Below, one piece after another: positions 33,987 through 36,035 of a stretch of 39,062 nucleotides of DNA (the first letter of the stretch is position 1; each line of letters opens with the position of its first letter). The stretch is taken from assembly GCA_048941265.1 (NCBI GenBank), contig JBHLNT010000022.1, positions 1-39,062 on the forward strand, in the 5' to 3' direction. The translations under genes were made by a program, and so were the position numbers. This stretch comes from Promethearchaeota archaeon. GTDB lineage: Archaea; Asgardarchaeota; Lokiarchaeia; Sigyniarchaeales; SOKP01. Below the pieces are notes generated by a model. It was not told the origin of the DNA, did no database searches, and worked only from the letters and a program-made list of their open reading frames with translations.

Positions 33987-36035
33987 TTAAATATCTAAAA
34001 AATTAACCTCATTGTAATTTTCAATAATCCATTTTTTTCTCGGTGTTGAGTCGGGACCCATCAATTTAGAAAAAATAAGATCATTCTCAAGATAATCTTC
34101 ATAAGTTACTTTTTTTAATACTCTGGTGTCTCGGTTCATTGTCGTTTCATAAAGCTCATCAGGATTCATTTCACCTAGACCTTTATATCTCTGAACTTTA
34201 ATAGAATCGGATTTTTGTAATTTATGTTTTTTTTTTAATTCTTCAATATTTTTGTCTTTTTCCTTATCGGTATAAACATAATTCTTAGATTTCTTATATT
34301 GAACTTTATAAAGAGGGGGTACTGCAACATAAAGATACCCTTCATCAATTAGAGGCCGCATATATCTAAAGAAGAATGTTAATAACAGAGTTTTAATATG
34401 ATGGCCATCTGAATCAGCATCGCAAAAAATTATGATCTTATGATACCTTAAGTTTTCTAAATTGAAATCTTCATCGATATCTCCATTTTCTGTATCCTCA
34501 TTCTGATCAGAACTGCCGTTAATCTCATTAACTCCTTGGATGCCAATACCTACTGCTTTAATTATTGCCTGTATCTCATTATTTTGTAATATTTTATCCA
34601 TACGTGCTTTTTCAACGTTTAATATCTTACCTCTTAAGGGAAGAATCGCTTGATATTCTCTATCTCGTCCTTGTTTTGCAGAACCACCTGCTGAATCACC
34701 TTCTACAATAAATAACTCACATTCTTCAGGGTTATTCGAAGAACAATCTGCAAGTTTTCCAGGCATCCTTGCACTATCTAATTCAGATTTTCTACGAATT
34801 AATAATCTAGCTTTTTGAGCTGCCTCCCTTGCTGTTTTCGCATTAATTGTTTTTAATACGATTTTTTTTGCAGTTTGAGGATTTTCTTCTAAGAATTGAT
34901 AAAATTTTTCAGTAATTATTTGACTAACCACTTGCCGAATTTCAGGATTTCCTAGTTTAATTTTAGTTTGGCTCTCAAATTGGGGATCAGGAAGTTTCAC
35001 AGAAATTACAGCTGATAATCCTTCCCGAGTATCACTTCCACTTAAAATATGGTCTTTGTATTTCTTCTCCATATTTTTTTCGATATAAGTATTAAAAGTT
35101 CTAGTGAGTGCTGATTTAAATCCCGTTAGATGTGTGCCACCTTCGATAGTATTTATTGTATTTGCATAAGTAAGAATATTAGATTGATATCCTTGATTGT
35201 ATTGTAATGCGACATCTACATATACTTTGGAATCATCTTCATCTGTATACTCATCACTCAAGAAAATAATCTCGTTATGCAGGGGCTTTTTATCTTTGTT
35301 GAGAAAGGTAATGAACTCTTTGATCCCCCCCTCATAATAAAATTCTTCTTCCTCTTCTGTATTCTCGTCATAGATCTCAAATTTTGCCTGAGGTGTTAAA
35401 AAAGCAAGCTCTCTCATTCGACCTGCAATTGTTGAGAAATTAAACATATTATTCTCATCTTCTATATCAAAAATTTCCCTGTCAGGATAAAAGGTAATTG
35501 TGGTACCCTTTTTATTATTTTTAAGTTCTTGTATCTCTGGTTCTGATGTTTTTACGCCTCTTGAAAACCTTTGTTTATAATAAACTTTATCCCTGTAGAT
35601 CTCTACTACTAACCATTCTGTCAAAGCATTCACAACAGAAAGACCAACGCCATGCAATCCACCTGATATCTTATAGCTTTTTTTGTCAAATTTGCCTCCG
35701 CTGTGCAAATGTTCCATAATCACTTCTATCGCAGGTTTTTGATATTCTCGATGCATATTAATAGGAATTCCCCGCCCATTGTCAGAAATCTTAACTGAAT
35801 TATCCTTATTAAACACAACCTCTATCTCGTTTGCGAAACCAGCCATCGCTTCATCGACACAGTTATCCAAAACTTCAAAAATAAGATGATGTAAGCCTTT
35901 TTTTCCGGTATCGCCAATATACATTGCGGGTCTCTTCCTTTGGCGAGATCTCATGAATTATGAGAAATTTACGCCTTCGAGACCCTTTAGGACCTGTATA
36001 TCTTCAGCATCATAACTATCGGGGGGTTCAGTCAT
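33987..36035 (-). CDS. gyrB: DNA gyrase subunit B, split: exon 1 36035-35970 (22 aa), exon 2 35939-33987; spliced product 672 aa
   Basis: Exon 1 reads [22 protein letters not shown]. Exon 2 reads [54 protein letters not shown]. Confidence 0.93.
35940..35969 (-). other. putative BHB (tRNA-endonuclease-type) mRNA intron in gyrB, 30 nt
   Basis: Sense strand GGCG-TA|A-ATTTCTCAT-AATTC-ATGAGATCT-CGCC-AA|A-GG. The 4-bp helix GGCG/CGCC is followed on each strand by three unpaired bases. The insert contains an in-frame TAA, and its removal restores GV-RKRP. Confidence 0.88.

Follow-up and report, generated by a model that had tools for sequence, protein, structure and literature searches.

We analysed 39,062 nt of DNA (hereafter the window; positions 1 to 39,062 of contig JBHLNT010000022.1, assembly GCA_048941265.1) from a Promethearchaeota archaeon in which gyrB, the gene for the B subunit of DNA gyrase, is interrupted. 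A 30-nt insert with an in-frame stop codon separates the first 22 codons from the remainder of the gene. The insert is very likely an intron of the bulge-helix-bulge (BHB) type in the gyrB pre-mRNA. A preliminary description of the window, made from the sequence alone, had proposed such an intron and an Asgard-type host. The host assignment agrees with the names of close relatives, which are recorded as Promethearchaeia or Promethearchaeota archaeon. The locus comprises the following features.

The interrupted gyrB gene

gyrB exon 1: 35970..36035, minus strand; ATG at 36035, start codon plus 21 codons, ending ...KGLEGV
Putative BHB-type mini-intron, 30 nt: 35940..35969, minus strand; read-through NFS*FMRSRQ, with an in-frame TAA
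gyrB exon 2: 33987..35939, minus strand; 650 codons plus stop, beginning RKRPAMYIG and open to the stop at 33987
gyrA: 31502..33943, minus strand; intact, 813 aa, 43 nt downstream of gyrB, with Pfam domains DNA_topoisoIV and DNA_gyraseA_C
A/T-rich box, candidate archaeal promoter element from sequence comparison: 36057..36077, minus strand; upstream of the exon-1 ATG

The missing N-terminus of GyrB lies where the preliminary description had placed it, in frame from the ATG at 36035, and the insert with its TAA directly precedes RKRP. Exon 2 matches the NCBIfam GyrB profile NF004189 with 889 bits (cut-off 740) over profile positions 25-641, and the 22-aa peptide of exon 1, taken on its own, aligns to positions 6-24 (E = 0.032). 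When the stop is replaced by X, the read-through matches positions 7-641 with 904 bits. Profile positions 24 and 25 are contiguous across the exons, and therefore the two pieces of gyrB abut exactly. Joined, they encode a GyrB of 672 aa. The order of Pfam domains in exon 2 (HATPase_c, DNA_gyraseB, Toprim, DNA_gyraseB_C) and the adjoining gyrA identify the gene as gyrB. Without splicing, the frame meets a stop at the fourth codon of the insert.

No second gyrB was identified in the genome (5.0 Mb, 91% complete, 361 contigs, metagenome-assembled). The preliminary description had named an intact gyrB elsewhere, together with decay of this copy, as a refutation of its proposal; neither was seen in this assembly. 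The insert resembles no known RNA family in Rfam (best E = 0.15 and 0.85, both far under gathering scores), and a search of the window with ARAGORN gave no tRNA. Intron-bearing and intron-less relatives share an A/T-rich box some 25-40 nt upstream of the ATG that opens exon 1. The box at 36057..36077 is a candidate promoter, which would imply a short leader or none.

Distribution, fold and covariation of the insert

To survey relatives we used the first 150 GyrB residues of an intron-less congener as query, with stops read through and counted. Matches were found in 115 of the 135 genomes of the family. Two of these end short of the insert site and were not counted as assessable. In 23 of the 113 assessable genomes the Val codon is followed directly by an insert, each time at the same codon boundary. 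These 23 have stops, or an alignment that begins at residue 18-22; the 90 genomes without the insert align from residue 7 or earlier and have no stops. Junctions were read in all 23 interrupted and in 41 uninterrupted genes. By genus, the intron occurs in 5/9 genomes of the window's genus, in 6/38 and 12/43 of two others, and in 0/25 from ten further genera. It was found in none of the 18 matching genomes from the order's three other families. We also sampled the phylum, with 332 genomes of 80% completeness or more; 179 gave a match, and 33 of these matches were not listed. None of the rows listed for the 76 matching genomes of other families has the insert.

A GyrB tree was built from 60 rows, comprising all 22 full-length intron-bearing sequences and 38 intron-less ones for which loci were returned; four rows shorter than 480 aa and the contig-truncated G089 were omitted. 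Every intron-bearing row falls in one clade of 40 rows (SH-aLRT 88). On this tree, 10 changes are needed to account for presence and absence (mean after shuffling, 18.1), and well-supported branches force no fewer than 6 of these. A single gain with several precise losses after it would fit this pattern, as would transfer by recombination. Gyrase is reported to have come to Archaea from Bacteria, and to Asgard lineages secondarily (PMC9348778); the word 'intron' is absent from that paper. The confinement of the insert to a sub-clade of one family argues that it was gained after gyrase reached the lineage, as the preliminary description had supposed. By this distribution, the gyrB intron is younger than the arrival of gyrB in the lineage.

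Three other kinds of irregularity were encountered in the survey. A split match in G020 was rejected as an interruption, being a frame-shifting deletion with no insert. Specifically, about 50 nt are missing near residue 360 (L064, G020:C95, ~9480-9800), and the copy is a pseudogene or an assembly error. Two matches in G030 were likewise rejected, as both lie within one open frame. In G108, G223, and G169 the GyrB N-terminus lies in open frames of 1129-1287 aa, which greatly exceed GyrB in size and possibly contain inteins or are fused genes.

The lengths of the 23 inserts are 30 nt (5 genomes), 31 nt (1), 33 nt (3), 52 nt (1), and 53 nt (13), so 15 of them, whose lengths are no multiple of three, shift the frame. 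Every insert has one to three in-frame stops, and unspliced reading ends 1-5 codons past the Val codon in 23/23. An intein or other in-frame protein insertion is ruled out by these stops and by the 15 non-triplet lengths. Excision of the insert restores ...G-V-R-x-R-P-A-M-Y in all 23. Exon-2 frames are intact, at 630-660 aa, in 22/22 fully fetched intron-bearing genes. The last 10 codons of exon 1 differ among the 23 genomes by 1071 synonymous versus 261 non-synonymous pairwise codon differences (the pairs are non-independent), and 21 DNA variants of the exon-1 end encode 5 peptide variants. From these counts we take exon 1 to be under purifying selection.

The junction region contains the following elements, given in the order of the transcript.

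Exon-exon outer helix, 5' strand GGGUCUC: 35979..35985, minus strand; Lys-Gly-Leu codons of exon 1
Central helix H, 5' strand GGCG: 35972..35975, minus strand; in exon 1, pairs with 35942-35945
5' bulge UAA: 35969..35971, minus strand; predicted cut between 35970 and 35969
Intron hairpin (h' helix), UCUCAU / loop AAUUC / AUGAGA: 35949..35965, minus strand; arms 35965-35960 and 35954-35949
Central helix H, 3' strand CGCC: 35942..35945, minus strand; in the intron, with G-C to G-U changes in relatives
3' bulge AAA: 35939..35941, minus strand; predicted cut between 35940 and 35939, within a 3 x 7 internal loop
Exon-exon outer helix, 3' strand GAGACCC: 35928..35934, minus strand; Lys-Arg-Pro codons of exon 2

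The central helix, the bulges, and the hairpin are all present in the sequence as first described, and the minimum-free-energy fold of 81 nt across the site recovers GGCG/CGCC and the hairpin. This fold has an energy of -23.3 kcal/mol (z = -2.74; 3/200 shuffles equally good). It includes the 7-bp exon-exon helix GGGUCUC/GAGACCC, with the 3 x 7 internal loop between this helix and H. The intron itself is built of 1 nt (the third bulge base), a 9-nt arm, a 5-nt loop, a 9-nt arm, the 4-nt H strand, and 2 bulge bases. In this fixed 30-nt architecture the gyrB intron has an energy of -11.7 kcal/mol. The flanking helix here has one A-U pair at the 5' bulge, followed by two mismatches and a run of 6 bp; the exon helix lies 3 nt off.

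The tRNA splicing endonuclease EndA cuts after the second base of each bulge (PMC5829648; 10.64898/2026.10.13.758758). For the comparison with this geometry, pairs were defined solely by distance from the protein-inferred junctions. For H, we compared two four-base strands, one in the exon and one in the intron, each of which stops two bases short of its junction (5' and 3', respectively); 89/92 cells are paired, versus 23-64/92 in five shifted registers. All four pairs form in 20/23 genomes, as they do here. For h', the five bases after the first intron base were set against the five before the H strand, giving 104/115 paired and 18-36/115 in shifted registers. A compensatory h' change was seen in G003. 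The 5' bulge is TAA in 16 genomes, TAT in 4, TTA in 2, and TTT in 1. The 3' bulge is AAA in 14, AAC in 3, AGC in 3, and others in 3. Cutting after the second bulge base removes exactly the insert and restores G-V-R-x-R-P in 23/23 (here the 3' bulge lies within the 3 x 7 loop), so the cut rule that the preliminary description applied to one gene yields the conserved junction in every intron-bearing genome.

Covariation was assessed on MAFFT alignments of these related sequences, with our own structures. For the short type of insert, 91.2% of cells are paired, 9 pairs have changed on both sides, and 0/500 shuffles score as high; in slid registers 35-44% are paired. For the long type, 86.0% are paired, and the covariation score was matched by 0/500 shuffles. 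The comparison of gyrB 5' regions that the preliminary description had called for thus yielded both precise presence versus absence (23 versus 90 genomes) and helix covariation beyond shuffles. The exon-exon helix (helix 1) has 92% of its cells paired and 3 pairs with changes on both sides. The third bases of the Gly and Arg codons pair in 18/23 intron-bearing genes (UA 3, GC 7, CG 8) versus 13/41 intron-less ones; the genes in both groups are phylogenetically non-independent. The exon-exon helix is encoded at synonymous positions.

Probable mini-introns in other genes of the genome

The preliminary description had suggested that gene callers hide such introns as truncated open reading frames (ORFs). 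This is borne out by at least seven further interrupted protein genes in the same genome, with inserts of the same build (1+9+5+9+4+2 = 30 nt, and one of 31 nt). For each, some congeners lack exactly those bases.

Ribosomal protein uL11, 30 nt, phase 2: L213:526-555 = C196:21625-21654, minus strand; inside the L11 N-terminal domain
Acetyl-CoA-synthetase-like gene, 30 nt: L216:775-804 = C18:2224-2253, minus strand
Second AMP-binding acyl-CoA synthetase gene, 30 nt: L215:1092-1121 = C40:1191-1220, minus strand
Alpha/beta hydrolase, 30 nt: L211:651-680 (C331); relatives, 3 with 30 nt, 1 with 33 nt, 6 without exactly 30 nt
Zn-dehydrogenase-like gene, 30 nt: L212:1072-1101 (C48); relatives, 3 with, 2 without
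MBL-fold gene, 30 nt: L214:195-224 (C42); relatives, 2 with, 3 without
Thiamine-pyrophosphate (TPP) enzyme, 31 nt, frame-shifting: L272:669-699 (C190), plus strand; build 1+9+6+9+4+2

These genes were found in two ways. In a homology scan, ORFs from 1.6 Mb (48%) of G064, a single-contig genome of the same family, were compared with the present genome. The forward scan identified two 30-nt stop-containing inserts with well-conserved flanks, both in AMP-binding acyl-CoA synthetase genes and both identical in build to the gyrB insert; it gave no split matches at the thresholds used. The reverse scan identified no such inserts in G064. A first, unfiltered homology list was discarded, as it consisted mostly of shadow-frame matches with stops; one split match in it, on C190, proved real and is the TPP-enzyme gene.

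The second approach was a genome-wide scan for the 30-nt build, in line with the preliminary proposal to look for BHB motifs in broken ORFs. It returned 42,964 structural hits, of which 1,469 are at or below -6.5 kcal/mol and 9 break an open frame (a stop inside, at least 30 open codons on each side, and at least 150 in sum). Seven of the 9 are backed by relatives: gyrB, the two synthetases, the hydrolase, the Zn-dehydrogenase-like gene, the MBL-fold gene, and uL11. The two remaining hits, C331:45763-45792 (minus strand) and C247:7824-7853 (plus strand), have flanks that resemble shadow frames. At a loose threshold the scan gave 181 frame-breaking hits, mostly A/T-rich gene junctions, and was usable only after the energy filter. 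Scans at other lengths were too noisy, except for C190. The count of introns is a lower bound, as half of one reference genome was used, shared introns are invisible to the comparison, and the structural scan covered one length.

In uL11 the Pfam N-domain spans the insert. Among relatives, 30 nt are present in 3, a frame-shifting 28 nt in 2, and there is precise absence in 15, with 3 more undecided; both strands of the central helix change between species. The two synthetase inserts contain stops, lie in a conserved motif, and are spanned by the Pfam domain. For the acetyl-CoA-synthetase-like gene, the site is shared by G001 and G005, in which another 30-nt intron lies 25 codons upstream of it; 16 further genomes that match have neither intron. 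The insert of the second synthetase is present in 4 congeners and absent in 1. For the hydrolase, dehydrogenase-like, and MBL-fold genes Pfam is uninformative, and the case rests with the congeners that lack exactly 30 nt. In the TPP-enzyme intron the 9-bp stem is perfect and the central helix has 4/4 pairs. Five congeners lack exactly its 31 nt, and it is probably a recent gain.

Presence varies gene by gene. G005 lacks the gyrB intron and has five others, and G001 has the gyrB intron and lacks the one in uL11. A covariance model of the short type (R2) recovers the gyrB intron from the genome with E = 1.9e-9. Beyond gyrB, the next matches to R2 and to the long-type model R1 have E of at least 1.3 (150 candidates scored per search, for R2 150 of 4748). 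As the models match gyrB only, the other introns are not sequence copies of the gyrB intron.

A different kind of in-frame stop was seen in large paralogous genes on C251 (~11858, ~11306) and C301 (~40555, ~40729, ~41104). These stops align with Cys of the G064 homologue and are likely selenocysteine codons.

Proposed splicing, alternatives and known systems

Enzymes that could remove such introns are encoded. We identified two EndA paralogues (120 and 93.9 bits versus the TIGR00324 cut-off of 59.6), both with the Pfam N- and C-domains, and one copy of RtcB (569 bits). The EndA genes are on contigs C258 and C323 and the RtcB gene is on C70. One EndA paralogue keeps the residues that we take, by the positions in M. 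jannaschii, to be the catalytic Tyr/His/Lys, and the other lacks them. By these residues the pair would be a putative catalytic alpha and structural beta subunit. Asgard archaea have been reported with a broad-specificity (alpha-beta)2 EndA that has an L1 loop (PMC5829648), and two EndA paralogues are present in 44/60 Asgard genomes (10.64898/2026.10.13.758758). In the whole 5.0-Mb genome, ARAGORN recognised only 12 tRNA genes, 9 of them with introns. This low number suggests that most tRNA genes are too interrupted for recognition, which agrees with a 2026 preprint about the tRNA introns of Asgard archaea (10.64898/2026.10.13.758758).

We consider it highly probable that the 30 nt at 35969..35940 are a BHB intron in the gyrB pre-mRNA. 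After transcription, the exon GGCG would pair with the intron CGCC, the intron would fold as a hairpin, and the Gly-Leu/Arg-Pro codon helix would draw the exons together. A heteromeric EndA, of catalytic alpha and structural beta subunits, could then cut after the second base of each bulge, and RtcB could ligate the exons and probably circularise the intron. The joined mRNA would encode the full 672-aa GyrB. The anatomy of the site, its conservation and covariation, the restored frames, the enzyme genes, and the precise presence and absence are observed; from them we infer the cleavage and ligation and the enzyme that would perform them.

Several observations weigh against this reading. The motif in this genome is relaxed. 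Canonical forms (hBHBh', hBH, HBh') need h or h' with a minimum of two contiguous pairs next to the bulge (PMC5829648; 10.64898/2026.10.13.758758), and under a strict definition 16/23 genomes have HBh', 3 have H with 3/4 pairs, and 4 have H only ('H4 only': G001, G003, G056, and the present genome, where the 5' bulge is adjoined by a single pair). The 3' bulge is not a closed one of 3 nt, its cut site being within the 3 x 7 internal loop. The preliminary description had also called the motif relaxed, and the single abutting pair and the 3 x 7 loop agree with that; its stated ground, the absence of an exon-exon outer helix, was mistaken, as the 7-bp helix is in the fold and covaries in relatives. 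Structure alone is unspecific: the uninterrupted frames of this genome contain 633 hairpins that are its equal in energy. The sequences used for covariation are related and non-independent. For the long type, three of five whole-structure measures are within the shuffle range, and the exon-exon helix is only 68% paired in the register used. Among the sequencing runs listed as holding the stretch, none is on record as RNA.

The action of EndA and RtcB is predicted from sequence and the motif here is relaxed, which leaves a small chance that the insert is removed from the RNA by other machinery (another endonuclease and ligase, or self-cleavage) and that the BHB-like shape is incidental. A rule specific to EndA, with cuts at base 2 of two bulges 4 bp apart, nevertheless predicts the junction in 23/23 gyrB genes and in the other genes. 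At 28-53 nt the inserts are also far below the size of group I or group II ribozymes, and they match no Rfam family.

It is very improbable that ribosomes skip or read through the insert, by programmed bypass, stop read-through, or frameshifting. In phage T4, ribosomes bypass a short untranslated gap in gene 60 that contains a stop and a hairpin. The present site resembles it in that a stop near the would-be take-off codon is followed by a hairpin, and both genes encode a subunit of a type II topoisomerase. Gene 60 needs matching take-off and landing codons, whereas here the take-off codon GTA/GTT is the last insert triplet in 0/23, no landing codon stands where R-x-R-P would result, and the conserved pairing is of the EndA type. 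Further, there are up to three in-frame stops of different kinds, inserts of 30-53 nt share the exact junction, and the covarying structure pairs exon bases with the intron end, which is the geometry of EndA.

The gene could instead be split or truncated, so that GyrB, made from an internal ATG, would lack its 22 N-terminal residues, and exon 1 would be a remnant or encode a small peptide of its own. The ATG of the insert is in frame with exon 2 in this genome, as this would require. In G001, G007, and G006, however, exon 2 is cut off by a stop from that ATG, or from the position it would have, and the frames differ in the 31-, 52-, and 53-nt forms. The purifying selection on exon 1, and synonymous sites of both exons that covary for the exon-exon helix, also speak against it, and we give the split gene a very slim chance.

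Very little credence is due to a decaying pseudogene, or to a small palindromic mobile element whose insertion has killed the gene. What might point that way is that the gene looks essential and contains an in-frame stop, and that the gyrB of G020 has the ~50-nt frame-shifting deletion. However, this is the sole gyrB in the genome, the neighbouring gyrA is intact, and exon 2 is open at full length in 22/22. The same kind of insert is in uL11, R2 finds no further copy of the gyrB intron among the 150 candidates scored, and neither elevated non-synonymous change nor further disruption was seen in intron-bearing copies.

An assembly or sequencing artefact, conceivable for a genome assembled from a metagenome into 361 contigs, is practically excluded by contigs of two runs (including X2) that have the identical 1001 nt, by a contig of a diverged relative in a third run, X4, that also has the insert, and by diverged versions at the same site in 22 other genomes from different projects. 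One of the two runs with the identical stretch is possibly the source, and the other is from the same study; run X3 had no piece spanning the site. Over window positions 35951-36055 the X4 contig has 6 differences in 105 nt, and it departs inside the intron. The 3' half of its intron differs, yet keeps the central-helix strand, the bulge, and exon 2 at the end.

Beyond the single locus, the gyrB intron very probably belongs to a uniform family of mini-introns of 28-33 nt, with 52-53-nt versions that contain a second hairpin. Such mini-introns appear to interrupt several protein genes in a Promethearchaeia (Loki-type) family, usually inside highly conserved motifs, and to have been gained and precisely lost gene by gene. 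These relatives of eukaryotes therefore very probably splice mRNAs with tRNA-splicing enzymes. A broader view, which we hold only tentatively and with some doubt, is that mini-introns of about 30 nt are active lineage-wide and colonise conserved motifs. In that case mRNA splicing by the tRNA machinery would be routine, new copies would still be arising by a templated route, there would be tens per genome, and many 'truncated' or 'split' Asgard genes would be intron-bearing. The 31-nt intron with its perfect stem and full central helix, seen only in this genome, would be one such new copy. Templated gain could occur by reverse action of EndA and RtcB with reverse transcription, or by insertion of a hairpin that copies the complement of its target; if true, it would account for the complementarity between the 3' end of each intron and the exon that bears it. 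The preliminary description also raised a connection with non-spliceosomal mRNA splicing in eukaryotes, which is speculation.

At least eight interrupted protein genes in one Asgard genome, including the essential gyrB and uL11, with precise gene-by-gene gain and loss within one genus, bear on several fields. If RNA confirms splicing, the closest prokaryotic relatives of eukaryotes would depend on mRNA splicing by protein enzymes for core functions, and would offer a testable system for how introns are acquired and tolerated in coding sequences without a spliceosome. Asgard catalogues would routinely label interrupted genes as truncated, split, or pseudogenes, with effects on phylogenies, on metabolic reconstructions, and on how complete a genome is judged to be. 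As for the splice motif, its exon half lies in synonymous codon positions, which would be a clear example of an RNA-structure constraint on coding sequence.

The nearest known case is cbf5. Watanabe reportedly described a BHB intron in crenarchaeal cbf5 pre-mRNA in 2002. For more than 20 years this has been the only accepted BHB intron in an archaeal coding sequence, alongside one 5'-UTR (untranslated region) case in Haloferax, and as of 2020 these two were the only ones reported besides those of stable RNAs, according to PMC7714728. The cbf5 intron of Crenarchaeota (aCBF5 pseudouridine synthase) is likewise inside coding sequence, with patchy gain and loss and a hetero-oligomeric EndA (PMC2738675; PMC7714728). 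The present case differs in its Asgard host, in other genes being interrupted, in at least eight per genome versus one, and in the uniform build of about 30 nt, with splicing predicted from DNA; cbf5 itself is uninterrupted in this genome (a 347-aa frame). The mRNA of Haloferax volcanii HVO_1309 is also a substrate of tRNA splicing endonuclease. Its intron is in the 5' UTR and its removal was shown in vivo and in vitro (PMC7714728), whereas the Asgard introns are in coding sequence, break the frame, and are known from DNA.

Asgard tRNA introns share the motif, the presumed enzymes, the small size (median 22-23 nt), and the repeated gains and losses, and differ in having a tRNA and not an mRNA as host (10.64898/2026.10.13.758758); that preprint has no occurrence of 'mrna'. 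Our full-text literature search, which would miss subscription-journal reports, turned up no BHB intron for gyrB or for any Asgard protein-coding gene, and within coding sequence only that of crenarchaeal cbf5. Eukaryotic HAC1 and XBP1 likewise lose a short intron independently of the spliceosome, by a protein endonuclease and a tRNA-type ligase or RtcB (PMC13149111; PMC8718801). They differ in the IRE1 nuclease, the twin stem-loops, and the use as a regulatory stress switch, and no homology of cutting is implied. Overall, the mechanism proposed here is one known from the BHB introns of cbf5, tRNA, and rRNA. What appears new is the number of host genes, among them essential ones, the uniform mini-build, the Asgard host, and an exon helix in synonymous sites.

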